NCBI RefSeq assembly: GCF_058153355.1
Contig: NZ_CM177019.1
Reading direction: 5' to 3' (one strand)
DNA: 64,000 bases
Of the stretch, positions 14,533 to 56,241 are shown piece after piece (the first letter of the stretch is position 1; every line of letters begins with the position of its first letter). The position numbers were made by a program, and so were the translations under genes. Below the pieces are notes generated by a model. That model was not told the DNA's origin, searched no databases, and saw only the letters and a program-made list of their open reading frames with translations.

Positions 14533-15027
14533 ATGAGCCATGTCTCGTTACAAGAATTTTTGAAAACGGAGCCGGACGGTACGCTGGAGGTGGTAGCCGA
14601 ACAATACAACACCACACTGCTGGAAGTAGTGAGAAATCTACCCTCCTCTACCGTAGTGTCAGGCGATAAATTCGATACTGTCTGGGATACCGTCTGCGAA
14701 TGGGGCAACGTCACCACGTTAGTACATACTGCCGATGTAATCCTCGAATTTAGCGGCGAACTGCCTTCGGGTTTCCATCGCCACGGCTATTTCAACCTAC
14801 GCGGAAAGCACGGCATGTCCGGGCATATCAAAGCAGAAAACTGCACACATATTGCCTTGATCGAACGTAAATTTATGGGCATGGACACCGCATCCATTCT
14901 CTTTTTCAACAAAGAAGGCAGCTCAATGCTGAAAATCTTCCTCGGCAGGGATGACCATCGTCAGCTCCTGAGCGAACAAGTCAGCGCCTTCCATGCTCTG
15001 GCAGCATCGTTAAAGGAACACGCCTGA
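14533..15027 (+). CDS. chuX: Haem-binding/chaperone protein ChuX (164 aa)
   Basis: ORF 14533..15027; operon position; stop overlaps the chuY start. Confidence 0.85.
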   Translation: MSHVSLQEFLKTEPDGTLEVVAEQYNTTLLEVVRNLPSSTVVSGDKFDTVWDTVCEWGNVTTLVHTADVILEFSGELPSGFHRHGYFNLRGKHGMSGHIKAENCTHIALIERKFMGMDTASILFFNKEGSSMLKIFLGRDDHRQLLSEQVSAFHALAASLKEHA

Positions 15028-15650
15028 TGACGCCGTGGCTACTCTTTGGCGCAGGCGGAAAAGGTGTGGGTGCCAGAACGCTTGAACTGGCGCTGGCGGA
15101 ACAACGTCCGGTCGTTGCTGTCATTCGTCATGCTGATGCTGCCACGAAACTGGCGCAACAAGGCGTACAGGTTTTTACAGGCGACGCCTGTGATGCCAGC
15201 GTAGTCGCGGCTGCTTGCCGCGCAGCTGGCCCGGATGCGCTTATCATCTCAACAATGGGCGGAGCTCAGGATTATCTGGCACACAGAACAGTGATTGATG
15301 AGGCCGAAAAGGCCGGCATCAGTCGCATGATTCTGGTGACCTCTTTGGGATGTGGCGATAGCTGGCCGTTTTTATCGGAGCGGGCAAAGGCTGCGTTTGG
15401 TCAGGCGGTACGGGAAAAAACGCTGGCGGAAAGCTGGTTGCAAACCAGCCAGCTTGATTACGCCATTCTCCGCCCTGGCGGTCTGCTTGATGGTGCGGCA
15501 ACGGGCAAAGCACAACGGATACAAAATCAGGAGTGTCATGGTTTTGTTAACCGTGTCGATGTCGCCGCACATATCCATGAACTGGCAAATGCGCCAGCAC
15601 TTAACCAGCAGGTCTACAGTCTGATTGAACCGGACCTGAAACCGGCGTGA
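15027..15650 (+). CDS. chuY: NAD(P)H-dependent anaerobilin reductase ChuY (207 aa)
   Basis: ORF 15027..15650; N-terminal Rossmann motif (GAGGKGVGAR); start overlaps the chuX stop. Confidence 0.85.
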   Translation: MTPWLLFGAGGKGVGARTLELALAEQRPVVAVIRHADAATKLAQQGVQVFTGDACDASVVAAACRAAGPDALIISTMGGAQDYLAHRTVIDEAEKAGISRMILVTSLGCGDSWPFLSERAKAAFGQAVREKTLAESWLQTSQLDYAILRPGGLLDGAATGKAQRIQNQECHGFVNRVDVAAHIHELANAPALNQQVYSLIEPDLKPA

Positions 15651-15698
15651 TCCCCCGGCGCGGAATCTCCGCGCCGTAATGTCGTAACGGAGTTTTGC

Positions 15699-16691
15699 GT
15701 GCTCAAGGATTCACTCTCTTCCGCCAGGGTCTTTATGGGGCTATCACTATTATTGCTAGCTCTGGTGCTGTTCGGTGCCAGTCAGGGAGCGTTAAAGATC
15801 AGTTTTGATGCCCTTTTTGATGAGGAATACCGCGATATCTGGCTCAATATTCGTCTACCACGGGTTTTGCTGGCGGTGCTGGTAGGTGCAGCGTTGGCAA
15901 CCGCCGGGGTAATTATGCAGGGGCTTTTTCGCAACCCAATGGCTGACCCTGGATTACTCGGCGTCAGTAGCGGTTCTGCATTAATGGTTGGCGTTGCTAT
16001 TGTGCTGCCCTTTTCCTTCCCAGTGGTGCTGGTGCTCTATGAGCAAATGGTGTTTGCCATTGCCGGAAGTTTAGTGGTCTGCACCATCATTTTTCTCATC
16101 ACGCAGCGCCATCGCGATGGAAGCATGATGCAATTATTACTCGCCGGTATCGCCATCAATGCCCTGTGCGGCGCAGCGATCGGCATCCTGAGCTATATCG
16201 GCGATGAGCAGCAGCTACGACAACTCACATTGTGGATGATGGGCAATCTTGGACAGGCGCAATGGCCGACGTTATTGGTTGCCAGTTCATTCATCCTACC
16301 GGCCATTATTGCAACAACTTGTCTCGCCGGAACGCTGAATTTACTGCAGCTCGGTGATGAAGAAGCCCACTACCTCGGCGTGAACGTTAAGCGTAAACGC
16401 CAGCAATTACTGTTAGTGAGCTCACTGCTCGTTGGTGCCGCCGTATCGGTAAGCGGCATTATCGGCTTTATTGGCCTGGTGATCCCGCATCTGATTCGTA
16501 TGACTACCGGGGCAAATCACCGCTGGCTAATCCCTTGCTCCGCCCTCGCCGGAGCCTGTTTATTGCTGATGGCAGACACGCTTGCCCGCACACTGGTACA
16601 GCCAGCAGAAATGCCCGTGGGATTATTAACCAGCCTGCTTGGTGGCCCTTATTTTATGTGGTTGATTCTGCGCAACCGGAGGATCACATGA
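15699..16691 (+). CDS. chuU: Haem ABC transporter permease ChuU (FecCD family), 330 aa
   Basis: ORF 15699..16691; polytopic FecCD-type permease. Confidence 0.9.
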
Positions 16692-17458
16692 TCAGCGCCC
16701 AGAATCTGGTTTATAGCCTTCAGGGGCGGCGTCTGACTGATAATGTCTCGCTGACTTTTCCCGGTGGGGAAATTGTTGCCATTCTCGGCCCTAATGGTGC
16801 GGGAAAATCTACGCTGCTTCGCCAGTTAACCGGCTATCTTCAACCTGATAGCGGCGAATGTCGGTTGTTTAATAAGCCATTAAATGAATGGTCGATTACT
16901 GAACTGGCGAAACACCGGGCCGTGATGCGTCAAAATAGCCACATGGCGTTTCCATTCAGCGTACAAGAAGTTATCCAGATGGGGCGGCATCCGCATCGTA
17001 CTGGTAATCAGGATAATGAAACAGCACAAATAATGGCGTTATGTGACTGTCAGGCGTTAGCAAACCGCGACTATCGGCAATTATCCGGTGGTGAACAACA
17101 GCGCGTGCAATTAGCGCGCCTGCTGGTGCAACTCTGGGAACCAACTCCCTCACCGAAATGGTTATTTCTTGATGAACCAACTTCGGCGCTGGATATTCAC
17201 CATCAGCAGCACTTGTTTCGTTTATTACGCCAGCTAGTTCACGAACGGCAGTTCAATGTTTGCTGCGTATTGCACGATCTAAATCTTGCCGCGCGTTATG
17301 CAGACCGTGTTGTATTAATGCAAAAAGGAAAGGTTATCGCAAATGGTAAACCGCAGGACGTATTGACACAGCAGGCGCTGACAATGCTCTACGGCGCGGA
17401 TATTACCGTACTTAAAGATCCTGCCAACCATTCACCACTGATCGTCCTCGATCATTAA
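16688..17458 (+). CDS. chuV: Haem ABC transporter ATP-binding protein ChuV (HmuV), 256 aa
   Basis: ORF 16535..17458 trimmed to the ATG at 16688 (ATGA overlap with chuU stop); Walker [10 protein letters not shown], signature LSGGEQQR, Walker [12 protein letters not shown]. Confidence 0.9.
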
Positions 17459-33532: not shown

Positions 33533-33555
33533 AAAATTATCCTCTTCAGGAGGAG

Positions 33556-34981
33556 TAATGCCGATCAGTTAAGGATCAGTTGACCGATCCAGTGGCTGTG
33601 TAAGAATCCGGAAACGCTCACTTGTTTCCGGATTTTTTTATGCACATTGGACAGGCTCTTGATCTGGTATCCCGTTACGATTCTCTGCGTAACCCACTGA
33701 CTTCTCTGGGGGATTACCTCGACCCCGAACTCATCTCTCGTTGCCTTGCCGAATCAGGTACTGTAACGCTACGCAAGCGCCGTCTTCCCCTCGAAATGAT
33801 GGTCTGGTGTATTGTTGGCATGGCGCTTGAGCGTAAAGAACCTCTTCACCAGATTGTGAATCGCCTGGACATCATGCTGCCGGGCAATCGCCCCTTCGTT
33901 GCCCCCAGTGCCGTTATTCAGGCCCGCCAGCGCCTGGGAAGTGAGGCTGTCCGCCGCGTGTTCACGAAAACAGCGCAGCTCTGGCATAACGCCACGCCGC
34001 ATCCGCACTGGTGCGGCCTGACCCTGCTGGCCATCGATGGTGTGTTCTGGCGCACACCGGATACACCAGAGAACGATGCAGCCTTCCCCCGCCAGACACA
34101 TGCCGGGAACCCGGCGCTCTACCCGCAGGTCAAAATGGTCTGCCAGATGGAACTGACCAGCCATCTGCTGACGGCTGCAGCCTTCGGCACGATGAAGAAC
34201 AGCGAAAATGAGCTTGCTGAGCAACTTATAGAACAAACCGGCGATAACACTCTGACGTTAATGGATAAAGGTTATTACTCACTGGGACTGTTAAATGCCT
34301 GGAGCCTGGCGGGAGAACACCGCCACTGGATGATACCTCTCAGAAAGGGAGCGCAATATGAAGAGATCAGAAAACTGGGTAAAGGCGATCATCTGGTGAA
34401 GCTGAAAACCAGCCCGCAGGCACGAAAAAAGTGGCCGGGACTGGGAAATGAAGTGACAGCCCGCCTGCTGACCGTGACGCGCAAAGGAAAAGTCTGCCAT
34501 CTGCTGACGTCGATGACGGACGCCATGCGCTTCCCCGGAGGAGAAATGGCGGATCTGTACAGTCATCGCTGGGAAATCGAACTGGGATACAGGGAGATAA
34601 AACAGACGATGCAACTGAGCAGGCTGACGCTGAGAAGTAAAAAGCCGGAGCTTGTGGAGCAAGAGCTGTGGGGTGTCTTACTGGCTTATAATCTGGTGAG
34701 ATATCAGATGATTAAAATGGCGGAACATCTGAAAGGTTACTGGCCGAATCAACTGAGTTTCTCAGAATCATGCGGAATGGTGATGAGAATGCTGATGACA
34801 TTGCAGGGCGCTTCACCGGGACGTATACCGGAGCTGATGCGCGATCTTGCAAGTATGGGACAACTTGTGAAATTACCGACAAGAAGGGAAAGGGCCTTCC
34901 CGAGAGTGGTAAAGGAGAGGCCCTGGAAATACCCCACAGCCCCGAAAAAGAGCCAGTCAGTTGCTTAACTGACTGGCATTA
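33556..34981 (+). mobile_element. IS4 copy 2 (1426 bp), same orientation as copy 1
   Basis: Same termini as copy 1; its own 12-bp target duplication cttcaggaggag at 33544..33555 and 34982..34993; the transposase ORF is identical at the protein level to copy 1. Confidence 0.9.
33640..34968 (+). CDS. insG: IS4 transposase InsG (442 aa)
   Basis: ORF 33622..34968; identical translation to the ORF at 1441..2787. Confidence 0.9.
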
Positions 34982-34983
34982 CT

Positions 34984-52300: not shown

Positions 52301-52797
52301 GCTTCGCCACGGCGAGCCGGAATTTTCGCCACCGTACTCCAGTACTCGACGGCAATGTCACCTTCCGGCGGCGCACCGTTGAACAGCTTGTTGTAACTCG
52401 CCACAGCTTCTTCTGCATGACCGGTAGTCGCCTGCAATCTTGCCTGTTGCAGTGCCTGACGACCATCCGGAGTAGAAAGTAACATTGTGGTCCGCGACGA
52501 TTTATACGCATTTGAACTCGGCGCTAACTGCGACAGCCGATCGAGCTGTTTTTGCGCGCCATCAATATCGCCCTGACGTAACAGAGAACGGAAACGGGCG
52601 GCAACGACGTCCGGGTTATTCGGATCAATAAGTTCCAGCCGATACAACGACTGTTGCACCAGGTCTTCACGATGGGTCGCTTCGCCTAACCGAACTTGCT
52701 CCAGCAACTGTTGCTGAGCGGTTGGTGCTGCCTCGACCATCGGCATGACGGCCAGACCGAGGGAAAGCGTGAATATGTTTAGTGTGAATTTGCGCAT
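49324..52797 (-). CDS. bcsC: Cellulose synthase outer-membrane subunit BcsC (TPR plus beta-barrel), 1157 aa
   Basis: ORF 49324..52797; TPR-rich N-terminal region. Confidence 0.95.
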
Positions 52798-53891: not shown

Positions 53892-56231
53892 TTACTCGTT
53901 ATCCGGGTTAAGACGACGACGGCTGATAATACGCAGCAAACGCCACAGTACCCAGGCCAGCAGCACGACGCTGATTGCCGCCAGCACCGCCAGCAGAATC
54001 GGATGGTTTGCCAGCGCATACCATAAGCGTTCGAACCACGGCAGATGGCCAACGTAATAGACGTCGCCAACACGCAGGCTATTGATACCGGACTCGCGGA
54101 TCACCGCGACCGAGCCGAACATGGTGGCGCGTTTGCCGCTATCGTTCACCGCATCGTTAAGCATTTCATAACCGCGTGGGCTATCTGCCAGCAGCGCAAT
54201 CACGCTACGCTGGTCGTTATACGGCGACTGGAAGCCAATCACCGCTGCCATCGCACCGGAAGAGGTCAGCGTTGATTGAGTTTCTGCCGCGCGATCGCTC
54301 TCGTCCGGCACAATGCCGGGGAACGGGGTCTGGCGCATCGGCGTTTTCACCCAGCTTTCGGTCGCCTGCACCAACAGGTCGATCTGCTTGTCGTCTTTCA
54401 GTTTGTCCGGGATACCACCGATGATCATGATGTCGGCATCTTTGCCCTGAATGGTGCTGCCATCATCGGTCACCGTCAGGTTAATCGCCGGGAAGCCCGT
54501 CTGTGCGCCGATAAAGCCAACGGTATTCAGCAAGGTTTCCATCTGTGCTTCGTTAGGCGCTTTCGGCATCACGGTGATGGTTTGTGACAGATCCGCCATC
54601 CGGCTGAACGGGAAGCCCGCGTTAGCAAATGCGCGTAGATCCGGCATCGGGATGAAGTGGTAATACTTCGAGAAGTCGATGATGGAGTCGTCACCAATCA
54701 CCACATGATTCTGCACCGGCTGGAAGGTAATACAGTTATCCACCGAACCGCCCGGCATCGGGTTCATATACTCAAAGTCAAACCGCAACTGGTTGGTCGC
54801 GCCCAGTTTCAGCGCCGGAATAGAGACATCCGTTTTGCCATCCAGCAAACCTTGTAATACAGGAATACGCAGCAGCAGGCGGTTCGCCTCCTGTTTACTG
54901 CTCAGGTTGAAGGATTGCAGGAACTGGTTATTCAGGCTGATATCCATCCGCGAACTGTCTTTCACCGGCGGCATGGTGTAGCGATAGTTGATATCCATAT
55001 CAATGCCGGTACTGCGCATCAGGTAGAGATCCGGCGGCAGGTTTAGCGAAACGTTAATCGCTGCTGGCTCAAGACCGCTGGATTGTAACTGTTCTTCATA
55101 GGTTTTCAGTTCACCAAAGGTGACCGGACGATCGGTACGCACCCAGTTCGGCGCATCGTACGGCTTACGCGGTAGCAGCGGTTTCACTTCATTCACTACC
55201 ACGCTTTCACCACGGAACAGAATGTTACCCTGAGCGATACCTTTCGCTGCCTGCAACAGGTCTTTGTCGTCACGACCAAAGACCACCAGCAGTTTGACGT
55301 AAGGATTCTGTGGATGGTTGATCATCTCAATCACCGGGGCTTTTACCGCCGGATGATCGCGCAGGAAGTCCGGGCGTTTGTCATTAGTGGCAAAAACGAT
55401 GGCATTGCGATCCGGCAGTTGGTTATAGAGCACCGGGAAGTTCTGCCCACGCCAGCCAGAACGCGAACCAAACCACGAGGCGACAATGGCAGATGCTTGT
55501 TGCAGCCCAACATCCGGCGCACCCGCAAAGACCATCGGCAAGGTGTTGGTGCGGTTATCACGCGGGTCAAAGAATGGTACCGGGAAGTGTGACAGATCAT
55601 TCTTCACATTCAGGGTCTGATAGGTCAGATCCAGTCCACTGCTCCGCCCAACATCCAGCCAAAGCGTGGTGCTGGCCGGGTTTTCGCACACGTCCTGATA
55701 ATGACCGACAAACTCCAGCCGCACACGGTTGAAGTCGGTAATAAACAGTGGGTTAATTGGCATTTGTGCCAGCGTTTTTTTACCCAACTGTTCTTTGGTC
55801 ACTGGCAGCACGCCCATCAGTTCATCATTGAGATAAACCTTTAACTGCGACTGGACAGGCAGTAACGATGGCGATGGCGTGTATTCGAGGTTGAGCATCG
55901 CCTTCGTCACCACTTCATCGCTGCGCATACCAAACTCAATGCTGCCGTTCGGGTTAATGCCACGTAGCACCATGCTGCCCGGCGGTGGCGCAATTTGCGC
56001 AAAGGTCAGCTTCACATCACGCGAAGGACCGTTCTGCGCCACGATGGGGGCATCAGCGCCCTGCACGCCCGGCATCACTTGCCCCACCTGCGGATTTTGT
56101 TCCGTCTGGGCGGCTACAGCTGGCTCAGCATTGATCAGTGGTTGCGTTGCTGGCGTCGCCTGCGTCATGAAAGAGGGGAACGCACTCATCCCCATAGCCA
56201 CTGCACAAATCCAGAATAGTTTTCTTTTCAT
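53892..56231 (-). CDS. bcsB: Cellulose synthase periplasmic subunit BcsB (779 aa)
   Basis: ORF 53892..56318 trimmed to MKRKLFWICAVAMGMSAFPSFMTQA... Confidence 0.9.
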   Translation of the reverse strand: MKRKLFWICAVAMGMSAFPSFMTQATPATQPLINAEPAVAAQTEQNPQVGQVMPGVQGADAPIVAQNGPSRDVKLTFAQIAPPPGSMVLRGINPNGSIEFGMRSDEVVTKAMLNLEYTPSPSLLPVQSQLKVYLNDELMGVLPVTKEQLGKKTLAQMPINPLFITDFNRVRLEFVGHYQDVCENPASTTLWLDVGRSSGLDLTYQTLNVKNDLSHFPVPFFDPRDNRTNTLPMVFAGAPDVGLQQASAIVASWFGSRSGWRGQNFPVLYNQLPDRNAIVFATNDKRPDFLRDHPAVKAPVIEMINHPQNPYVKLLVVFGRDDKDLLQAAKGIAQGNILFRGESVVVNEVKPLLPRKPYDAPNWVRTDRPVTFGELKTYEEQLQSSGLEPAAINVSLNLPPDLYLMRSTGIDMDINYRYTMPPVKDSSRMDISLNNQFLQSFNLSSKQEANRLLLRIPVLQGLLDGKTDVSIPALKLGATNQLRFDFEYMNPMPGGSVDNCITFQPVQNHVVIGDDSIIDFSKYYHFIPMPDLRAFANAGFPFSRMADLSQTITVMPKAPNEAQMETLLNTVGFIGAQTGFPAINLTVTDDGSTIQGKDADIMIIGGIPDKLKDDKQIDLLVQATESWVKTPMRQTPFPGIVPDESDRAAETQSTLTSSGAMAAVIGFQSPYNDQRSVIALLADSPRGYEMLNDAVNDSGKRATMFGSVAVIRESGINSLRVGDVYYVGHLPWFERLWYALANHPILLAVLAAISVVLLAWVLWRLLRIISRRRLNPDNE

Positions 56232-56241
56232 CGCGTTATCA

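Follow-up and report, generated by a model that had tools for sequence, protein, structure and literature searches.

Six stop-start overlaps in a 64,000-nucleotide, E. coli-type stretch of DNA (the window) most probably mark true junctions between adjacent genes within polycistronic operons, with translational coupling as the proposed mechanism; we put the probability of this reading at about 80%. The operons concerned would be chuTWXYUV (haem uptake and anaerobic haem breakdown), bcsRQABZC together with bcsEFG (cellulose synthesis), and the tnpA-tnpB-tnpC genes of an IS66-family element. The overlaps are correct but ordinary and already known, this gene spacing being the most frequent one in bacteria, and the starts that they imply are those already annotated. 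Their significance lies mainly in annotation quality, in that the short chuV and bcsA starts are confirmed as the right gene models. They also offer a clean comparative example of overlaps that are kept across genera while their exact class varies, and an apparent example of a Shine-Dalgarno motif written into an upstream gene through rare arginine codons.

Gene boundaries at the six junctions

Direct reading of each junction confirmed that the overlaps claimed in the original prediction are present at all six. On the plus strand, chuX (14533–15027) and chuY (15027–15650) share one nucleotide within a TGATG, the chuX stop TGA occupying 15025–15027 and the chuY start ATG 15027–15029; identical boundaries were assigned by PGAP in L001. 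Further along the same operon and strand, chuU (15699–16691) and chuV (16688–17458) overlap by four nucleotides in an ATGA at 16688–16691 (chuV ATG at 16688–16690, chuU TGA at 16689–16691), in agreement with PGAP. On the minus strand, bcsQ (58857–59609) and bcsA (56242–58860), also bounded as in PGAP, meet in an ATGA at 58857–58860, which reads TCAT on the plus strand and holds the bcsA start at 58860–58858 and the bcsQ stop at 58859–58857. Back on the plus strand, bcsE (60081–61652) is followed by bcsF (61649–61840, 63 amino acids), whose start lies over the bcsE stop in an ATGA at 61649–61652, and bcsF by bcsG (61837–63516), whose start lies over the bcsF stop in an ATGA at 61837–61840; both junctions were read directly and appear in PGAP. 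The last junction, between tnpA and tnpB of the IS66-family element on the plus strand, was read as a GTGA at 3194–3197, with the tnpB GTG (3194–3196) over the tnpA TGA (3195–3197). The description of all six as ATGA or TGATG overlaps was thus accurate for five of them and mistaken for the IS66 pair. By class there are five overlaps of -4, one of which is the GTGA, and one of -1. With these boundaries, all 46 gene models of the window translate cleanly. The overlapping pairs are co-directional neighbors within one operon according to the gene map and PGAP gene order, and are presumably co-transcribed.

These operons resemble known systems closely. The bcs genes match the E. coli-type bcsRQABZC and bcsEFG clusters in content, order, and protein lengths (PMC7840130, PMC7439463), and bcsQ is intact here, its sixth codon encoding leucine where K-12 has TAG. 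The order of permease followed by ATPase seen in chuUV is the same in the haem importer operons hmuTUV of Y. pestis and shuTWXYUV of Shigella.

Taken alone, the overlap motif is a poor guide. The two strands of the window contain 611 copies of ATGA and 255 of TGATG. Among the 14 genes that end in TGA, nine have an A or G directly before the stop, and four of these nine (A/G)TGA stops (bcsA, chuY, dctR, and yhjG) are decoys, opening ORFs of only 3–29 codons. Given the number of copies and the four decoys at genuine stops, ATGA was rejected as a diagnostic motif. The six overlaps go beyond chance in two respects: a conserved gene runs at full length from each overlapping start, and orthologous loci retain the overlap. 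Published work has found -4 to be the most frequent gene spacing in E. coli and accepts stop-start overlap as a sign that translation may be coupled (PMC6728339, PMC10666635). Overlaps are not unusually frequent in the window, where 6 of 34 co-directional pairs lie at -4 or -1 and seven within -8 to +6; their frequency did not differ from the 24% published for the E. coli genome as a whole (binomial p = 0.73; PMC10666635). The distance table, using PGAP coordinates carried over from L002, also contains a 19-nt out-of-frame overlap on the minus strand between the 3′ end of bcsZ and the start of bcsC (52779–52797), which was absent from the original list.

Start codons and embedded Shine-Dalgarno motifs

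The overlaps had been offered as support for corrected start codons in preference to longer ORF-track extensions. The preferred starts are right by every independent line, while the motif itself is weak evidence of a start and, with four decoy (A/G)TGA stops in the window, renders the argument partly circular. The notion of correction, moreover, applies only to chuV (ORF-track start TTG 16535) and bcsA (GTG 58908); for chuY, bcsF, bcsG, and tnpB, the ORF-track start was already the overlapping codon. In-frame stops in orthologues, Shine-Dalgarno motifs, Pfam boundaries, and annotation indicate that the overlapping codon is probably the real downstream start. In near-identical E. coli genomes, PGAP uses the same starts as the overlapping codons; across the chu and bcs regions, the best-matching complete genomes reach 99.1–99.8% identity, short of a perfect match in every case. 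In bcsF, positions 1–60 of the Pfam CBP_BcsF profile span residues 2–61.

It is scarcely credible that the true starts of chuV and bcsA are the longer ORF-track forms, which would create dual-coding overlaps of 157 and 52 nt. Although the extension frames of both TTG 16535 and GTG 58908 are open in this window, neither codon has a Shine-Dalgarno motif (-1.5 kcal/mol each). The chuV extension meets an in-frame stop four codons upstream of the ATG in five Citrobacter loci and 8–33 codons upstream in other genera, while the bcsA-frame extension, whose sequence is not conserved, stays open for just 7–11 codons in two lineages, one of them Salmonella. A long chuV would begin its ABC_tran domain at residue 69, rather than at the usual position of about 18 (Pfam), and the short forms of both proteins are those used by PGAP and by PDB depositors. 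The long starts were rejected on the basis of Shine-Dalgarno motifs, orthologue stops, and Pfam boundaries. E. coli BcsA chains in the PDB begin MSILTRW, these entries being depositors' construct sequences rather than evidence of native N-termini; among the PDB entries checked, no experimental N-termini for the downstream proteins were found.

A shorter extension of ChuV was suggested by the longer N-terminus of its closest solved homologue, Y. pestis HmuV (HmuUV transporter, 4g1u; E = 1e-95), whose deposited chain carries about ten more residues at that end and lacks a Met where ChuV has Met1. Were GTG 16658, ten codons before the ATG, the true start, chuV would overlap chuU by 34 nt. The 4g1u chain aligns from residue 2 to query position 43, V-D-x-A included, and a modest Shine-Dalgarno motif (-4.9 kcal/mol) precedes GTG 16658. 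However, the stretch following this GTG also encodes the chuU C-terminus, so that resemblance in the overlapping frame would be expected in any case, and the motif of the chuV ATG is far stronger, as well as conserved. At all 29 loci, the tblastn match to ChuV extends back to residue 1. This start is thus very improbable, and it was rejected because five Citrobacter loci, and Limnobaculum as well, have an in-frame stop separating this position from the ATG. Since the HmuV N-terminus differs, an identical junction architecture does not extend beyond the examined set of Escherichia, Citrobacter, Kluyvera, and Providencia.

Shine-Dalgarno strength was expressed as duplex energy with the anti-Shine-Dalgarno sequence, for which the window background has a median of -1.9 and a 5th percentile of -6.0 kcal/mol. 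Motifs of -5.6 to -9.5 kcal/mol lie within the 3′ end of the upstream gene at five of the overlapping starts; that of bcsG is weak (-3.1 kcal/mol). The strongest, GGAGG of chuV (16678–16682, plus strand; -9.5 kcal/mol, background quantile 0.003), is part of the Arg-Arg codons CGG-AGG at the chuU C-terminus. Inside the 3′ end of bcsQ, a Shine-Dalgarno-like GGGAG (58867–58871, minus strand; -6.9 kcal/mol, quantile 0.02) precedes bcsA and is retained in relatives as GGGAG or GGGGG. A similar AAGGA inside the 3′ end of chuX, 9–14 nt before the chuY ATG (15013–15017, plus strand; -5.6 kcal/mol, about the top 7% of background), is retained as AAGGA or AAGGG in most orthologues. On the plus strand, tnpB has AGGAG (3181–3185; -6.6 kcal/mol) and bcsF has GGAG (61637–61640; -5.6 kcal/mol). 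The C-terminal Arg-Arg of chuU is encoded by CGG or AGG followed by AGG or AGA, spelling GGAG, in 27 of 28 orthologues, while codons of the CGG/AGG/AGA type make up 14% of the arginine codons across the rest of chuU. This choice of rare codons is evidence for what appears to be selection on the embedded chuV Shine-Dalgarno motif.

Conservation and the case for coupling

Synteny was kept at 29 chu loci and 10 bcs loci, the chu loci representing about ten enterobacterial genera, including Escherichia, Citrobacter, Kluyvera, Raoultella, Enterobacter, Klebsiella, Pluralibacter, Providencia, and Limnobaculum. chuU and chuV overlapped in 29 of 29 orthologous loci (-4 in 25, -1 in three, and -8 in one), as did chuX and chuY in 27 of 27 (-1 in 20 and -4 in seven). 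The overlap class in the chu operon therefore shifts among -1, -4, and -8 while the genes remain overlapped; the non-overlapping chu junctions hold spacings of their own, at +12 and about +50. Among the cellulose genes, bcsQ/bcsA, bcsE/bcsF, and bcsF/bcsG each had ATGA in five of five close relatives, and all three overlaps were present in E. albertii, Salmonella, and Citrobacter. In L092, bcsE/bcsF is joined by ATGA and bcsF/bcsG by a -8 overlap. The bcsQ/bcsA overlap was retained down to 46% BcsQ identity, with spacings in the deeper relatives of -14, -4 (GTGA), -4, -4, and +1.

Under the proposed mechanism, a ribosome terminating on the upstream gene would sit directly on the downstream start, and the Shine-Dalgarno motif embedded near the end of the upstream coding sequence would aid initiation by that ribosome. 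Alternatively, a fresh 30S subunit might initiate, gaining access where local structure had been melted by the upstream ribosome. Output of the downstream protein would thereby be tied to that of its partner, and the benefit would be matched subunit output for a ChuU2V2-type transporter, for BcsQ-BcsA contacts, and for BcsE, BcsF, and BcsG. Both the actual coupling of translation and this benefit are inferred from other, published E. coli pairs. Native E. coli -4 pairs proved coupled in four of five cases tested, coupling collapsed at spacers of 20–40 nt, and subunits of heteromeric complexes were 4.5-fold enriched among short-distance pairs (PMC6728339, PMC10666635). The coupled -4 pairs hyfH/hyfI, astD/astB, ydbH/ynbE, and menD/menH work by termination-reinitiation (Huber et al., 2019, 2023; PMC6728339, PMC10666635). 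Like them, the pairs described here are co-directional operon genes with an ATGA overlap and a Shine-Dalgarno motif in the upstream 3′ end, and several encode parts of one complex (ChuU/ChuV, BcsQ/BcsA, and BcsE/F/G). Unlike them, for which coupling is experimental, the present pairs are predicted to be coupled, and chuX/chuY belongs to the -1 TGATG class. ChuX and ChuY also differ from those pairs in being pathway partners that, to our knowledge, form no complex, and the stoichiometry rationale is weaker for this junction as a result.

It could also be that the overlaps are real but functionally neutral, reflecting the turnover of stop and start codons in packed operons, with each downstream gene initiated independently at its own Shine-Dalgarno motif. 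Good motifs at five of the six starts would allow this, and the strong ones, that of chuV especially, could drive de novo initiation; the weak motif of bcsG speaks against it. (A/G)TGA also arises readily at TGA stops, as the nine of 14 in this window illustrate. Inheritance alone, however, is hard-put to explain the retention of overlap at every chuU/chuV and chuX/chuY locus despite changes of class. The overlapped starts also lie in more structured RNA than do independent starts: opening the RNA from -15 to +5 costs 6.2–14.4 kcal/mol at overlapped starts versus a median of about 6 at non-overlapped ones (Mann-Whitney p = 0.004, with few genes, n = 7 versus 15). Costlier opening is what would be expected if these sites rely on an upstream ribosome. 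Among the five published E. coli pairs tested, bioB/bioF was uncoupled and the other four were coupled (PMC6728339). On balance, neutrality seems unlikely, and coupling is the preferred reading.

Genetic data on the bcs genes bear on both views. Nonsense mutations in bcsQ (K-12) and bcsE (ATCC 8739) abolish cellulose synthesis, and downstream polar effects have been suggested (PMC5944007); Rho-dependent transcriptional polarity could instead underlie this polarity (PMC12548453). When a premature stop was placed after residue 217 of BcsE in a T7 expression plasmid, the outcome was in line with that of a deletion preserving the bcsF ribosome-binding site (PMC7439463). Expression of bcsF and bcsG in that setting is therefore not strictly dependent on full bcsE translation, as independent initiation would predict. 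Published Bcs expression constructs have produced the subunits from native operon junctions and do not address the overlaps themselves (PMC7840130, PMC7439463). No experiments on these particular gene pairs were found in the literature, nor was anything specific to coupling in the chu operon or between tnpA and tnpB of IS66. Anyone engineering these operons should expect deletions or nonsense alleles of chuU, chuX, bcsQ, bcsE, or bcsF to disturb the gene that follows, unless roughly the final 15 nucleotides are kept together with the overlap.

The bcsA/bcsB spacer and the IS66-family element

From the bcsA stop to the bcsB start, two chained ATGA overlaps on the minus strand delimit a five-codon mini-ORF, ATG ATG ATA ACG CGA TGA (56228–56245). 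Its start forms an ATGA on the bcsA stop, and its end forms an ATGA on the bcsB start. BcsB is required at roughly six-fold excess over BcsA, and bcsB is without a Shine-Dalgarno motif (+0.5 kcal/mol). Eight lineages share an ATG at a distance of exactly 14 nt before the bcsB ATG, with five sense codons after it and then a TGA that covers the bcsB start; this arrangement is retained down to 54% BcsQ identity, including where the position of the bcsA stop has shifted. The mini-ORF might act as a relay, possibly undescribed, passing ribosomes that finish bcsA on to bcsB, although we regard this as doubtful; it may instead simply result from a conserved spacer that contains tandem stops. In the single paper found to combine bcsA, bcsB, and "translational coupling", the phrase was applied to another gene. 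If the relay were true, it might account for some of the unexplained "+10 nt" peak in E. coli gene spacings.

The IS66-family element (1257–5163, plus strand) is bounded by GTAAGCG.../...CGCTTAC terminal inverted repeats and by an 8-bp target duplication, CTATAAGG, at 1249–1256 and 5164–5171. These features, together with the presence of tnpA, tnpB, and tnpC and Pfam matches of TnpA to HTH_Tnp_1 and of TnpB to TnpB_IS66, place it in the IS66 family. On the plus strand, tnpB (3194–3541) carries the TnpB_IS66 match, and tnpC (3561–5132) is an IS66-family transposase by annotation of matching records. The 420-nt tnpA is split into 1340–1374 and 2813–3197 (plus strand) by an IS4 element at 1375–2800, also on the plus strand, which was recognized from self-BLAST against a second IS4 copy (33541–34983), its inverted repeat, and IS4 annotation. 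A 12-bp target duplication, CTCTCCGGGAAG, flanks this insertion at 1363–1374 and 2801–2812. The "tnpA" of the ORF track (2589–3197) is a chimera that starts inside IS4, whereas the genuine gene begins at 1340. The split of tnpA makes this IS66 copy defective, and coupling of tnpA to tnpB is moot for it. In an intact element that is 94% identical (L091), PGAP annotates the same -4 tnpA/tnpB overlap. ISCro1 and other IS66 relatives likewise have three consecutive ORFs, GTAAGCG terminal repeats, an 8-bp duplication, and a stop-start overlap of tnpA with tnpB. This overlap is -4 here and in L091 (GTGA here), versus -1 (TGATG) in ISCro1, and the present copy further differs from IS66-family relatives in its GTG start for tnpB and its split tnpA. 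Compared with ISCro1, the element is a mosaic, in which tnpA is about 60% identical and the sequence from tnpB onward is identical.

Six stop-start junctions and their setting

The original prediction listed six stop-start overlaps, and all six were read directly in the sequence, although the IS66 junction proved to be GTGA rather than ATGA. At chuX/chuY, a TGA (15025-15027) and an ATG (15027-15029) form TGATG with a 1-nt overlap, and chuU and chuV have an ATGA in common (16688-16691). The minus-strand bcsQ/bcsA junction (58857-58860) appears as TCAT on the plus strand, that is, ATGA on the coding strand. ATGA is also found at bcsE/bcsF (61649-61652) and bcsF/bcsG (61837-61840), and IS66 tnpA/tnpB (3194-3197) has GTGA, giving tnpB a GTG start. 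Such overlaps are textbook, and the chu and bcs genes are already annotated with these starts.

The window represents a chromosome of Escherichia coli type: the searched segments match complete E. coli genomes at 99.1-99.8% identity, with none listed at 100%. A 46-gene map with overlapping boundaries translated with no internal stops in the window. It runs from an IS66-family element through slp-dctR, chuS-chuA and chuTWXYUV to the acid-fitness island (hdeAB, gadE, mdtEF, gadWXA), followed by treF, IS4, yhjB to dctA, and finally bcsRQABZC with bcsEFG. The bcsQ gene (58857-59609, minus strand) is intact, with Leu at codon 6 in place of the TAG nonsense codon of K-12, and the bcs genotype therefore looks cellulose-proficient. 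A 19-nt out-of-frame overlap of bcsZ and bcsC (52779-52797, minus strand) was missing from the original list.

The ATGA/TGATG motif alone is not beyond chance and is non-discriminating. Counting both strands, the window contains 611 copies of ATGA and 255 of TGATG. The base before the stop is A or G in 9 of the 14 genes ending in TGA, and in four of these nine the resulting [A/G]TGA opens only a short ORF, at the stops of bcsA (5 codons), chuY (10), dctR (3) and yhjG (29). Nor were overlaps enriched in the window, where -4 or -1 spacing was found in 6 of 34 co-directional neighbour pairs (binomial p = 0.73 against published E. coli); genome-wide, 707 of 2,987 E. coli pairs fall within -8 to +6 (PMC10666635). 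Two features do go beyond chance: every overlapping codon is the start of a full-length conserved gene, and relatives keep the overlap.

Start codons of the downstream genes

The overlapping starts preferred in the original prediction are borne out by PGAP agreement, Shine-Dalgarno strength, domain boundaries and in-frame stops in orthologues. In near-identical genomes PGAP starts chuY at 15027, chuV at 16688, bcsA at 58860, bcsF at 61649 and bcsG at 61837. The argument that the overlaps themselves support shorter starts over the longer ORF calls (the ORF-track) holds only in part: the motif by itself is not discriminating, and correction was needed at just two junctions. Longer alternatives exist only for chuV (TTG 16535) and bcsA (GTG 58908), for both of which the short form is favoured; for chuY, bcsF, bcsG and tnpB the overlapping codon is already the ORF-track start.

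The chuV ATG at 16688 has a Shine-Dalgarno duplex of -9.5 kcal/mol (background quantile 0.003), compared with -1.5 kcal/mol for TTG 16535 and -4.9 kcal/mol for GTG 16658. In the short ChuV the ABC_tran domain begins at residue 18, and an in-frame stop lies 4 codons 5' of the ATG in five Citrobacter loci and 8-33 codons 5' in other genera. The weak duplex, the domain boundary and the orthologue stops speak against TTG 16535. For bcsA, ATG 58860 has a duplex of -6.9 kcal/mol (quantile 0.02) versus -1.5 for GTG 58908, and in Salmonella and one other lineage the extension, which is not conserved, stays open for just 7-11 codons; both findings speak against the longer form. NAD_binding_10 begins at residue 8 of ChuY, and the BcsF profile spans residues 2-61 of BcsF. 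PDB chains begin MSILTRW (E. coli BcsA), MTPW (ChuY) and MMTIS (BcsF), these being depositors' constructs rather than measured N-termini.

The deposited sequence of Yersinia pestis HmuV (4g1u) is longer by about 10 residues at its N-terminus and lacks a Met where ChuV has Met1. This longer N-terminus raised GTG 16658 as a candidate chuV start, which is disfavoured by the in-frame stops in Citrobacter and Limnobaculum and by the Shine-Dalgarno at the ATG, which is conserved and much stronger. The difference from HmuV also means that, beyond the sampled genera, the permease/ATPase junction is not the same.

The chuV Shine-Dalgarno, GGAGG, is written in the Arg-Arg codons CGG-AGG at the chuU C-terminus (16675-16691). 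This Arg-Arg is encoded by CGG/AGG plus AGG/AGA, spelling GGAG, in 27 of 28 orthologues (L006-L033), a codon choice that points to selection on the embedded motif; as these loci share ancestry, no formal probability is given. CGG, AGG and AGA are rare, making up 14% of Arg codons elsewhere in chuU, and a conserved Arg two codons upstream of the pair uses the common CGC/CGT.

Conservation and proposed translational coupling

A ChuV scan of species-representative genomes yielded 29 orthologous loci (65-97% ChuV identity) from Escherichia, Citrobacter, Raoultella, Intestinirhabdus, Kluyvera, Pluralibacter, Silvania, Enterobacter, Klebsiella, Limnobaculum and Providencia. The chuU/chuV spacing was -4 in 25, -1 in three and -8 in one, and that of chuX/chuY was -1 in 20 and -4 in seven. 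Spacing was +11 to +13 at chuW/chuX (25 of 28), approximately +50 at chuY/chuU, with a conserved GTG start, and approximately +18 to +23 at chuT/chuW. The class of overlap thus varies among orthologues, yet chuU/chuV and chuX/chuY always overlap, which argues that these overlaps are maintained rather than simply inherited. In Citrobacter amalonaticus S646 (L009, ~3332-3460), chuY is nearly all deleted, with its last ~29 codons left after chuX in an otherwise intact operon. An 8.6-kb contig labelled Flavobacterium paronense CECT 8460 (L034) carries an E. coli-like chuU (residues 162-330 are 100% identical), and its chuU/chuV junction almost matches that of the window. The probable cause is contamination of that record or an error of assembly.

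All three bcs junctions have ATGA in E. albertii, Salmonella bongori, S. enterica, Citrobacter koseri and one more lineage (75-92% BcsQ identity). Among five deeper relatives, reached via 50%-identity representatives, bcsQ/bcsA was -14 (64% BcsQ identity), GTGA at -4 (54%), ATGA (47% and 46%) and +1 (41%); the 64% relative had bcsE/bcsF at -4 and bcsF/bcsG at -8.

Translational coupling is the best-supported role for the overlaps. A terminating upstream ribosome would initiate at the overlapping codon, aided by the embedded Shine-Dalgarno; alternatively, a 30S subunit would reach the site when that ribosome unfolds the mRNA and then initiate there with the same help. Published work has not decided between RNA unfolding and reinitiation (PMC12548453). 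In E. coli, neighbouring genes are most often spaced at -4; of five native pairs tested at this spacing four proved to be coupled, coupling drops sharply when spacers of 14-38 nt are present, and subunits of heteromeric complexes are 4.5-fold enriched among short-distance pairs (PMC6728339, PMC10666635); the uncoupled pair was bioB/bioF (PMC6728339). The energy to open positions -15 to +5 was 6.2-14.4 kcal/mol at seven overlapped starts, similar to ordinary coding sequence (mean 8.9), whereas fifteen non-overlapped starts had a median of about 6 kcal/mol (Mann-Whitney p = 0.004); as support for coupling this is suggestive only.

A literature search found no coupling experiments on these six gene pairs. 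Nonsense alleles of bcsQ (K-12) and bcsE (ATCC 8739) were cellulose-negative, with polar effects suggested (PMC5944007), which could reflect Rho polarity rather than translational coupling. On a T7 plasmid, a premature bcsE stop behaved like a deletion sparing the ribosome-binding site (PMC7439463).

The bcsA gene ends CAA CAA TGA TGA TAA, in which the first TGA and the A preceding it make ATGA. A five-codon mini-ORF, ATG ATG ATA ACG CGA TGA (MMITR; 56228-56245, minus strand), opens on this stop, and its TGA overlaps the bcsB ATG as ATGA. The bcsB gene has no Shine-Dalgarno (+0.5 kcal/mol), even though BcsB is in excess of BcsA within the complex (PMC7840130). In the window and in seven further lineages, with BcsQ identity as low as 54%, an ATG stands 14 nt 5' of the bcsB ATG and leads through five sense codons to a TGA that overlaps the bcsB start; in one of these lineages the bcsA stop lies six nucleotides further upstream. 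The mini-ORF is absent from two deeper relatives, both with longer spacers, and in one of these bcsB has its own AAGGA. The mini-ORF may serve as a coupling relay from bcsA to bcsB, although this functional reading is unlikely, or it may simply be a conserved spacer.

The IS66 element and the IS4 copies

The IS66-family element (1257-5163) has GTAAGCG... terminal repeats and a flanking 8-bp duplication, CTATAAGG. An IS4 (1375-2800; 12-bp target duplication CTCTCCGGGAAG) splits tnpA, whose true ATG is at 1340, after its first 35 nt. Rejoined (1340-1374 plus 2813-3197), tnpA is 420 nt long and so equals in length the tnpA that PGAP annotates in a 94%-identical intact element; the ORF-track "tnpA" (2589-3197) is therefore a chimera beginning within IS4, and this IS66 copy is probably defective. 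In the intact element tnpA and tnpB likewise overlap by 4 nt, and such an overlap is typical of the family. ISCro1 is identical to the window element from the tnpB start codon onward (3194-5163), but the two tnpA genes share only about 60% identity (2813-3197 compared), and the ISCro1 junction is TGATG rather than GTGA. The element is a mosaic that switches exactly at the tnpA/tnpB stop-start junction. Between treF and yhjB there is a second IS4 copy (33541-34983), which shares 99.7% identity with the first, and the same site holds an IS4 in at least one other E. coli genome, that of strain 24AR0376.
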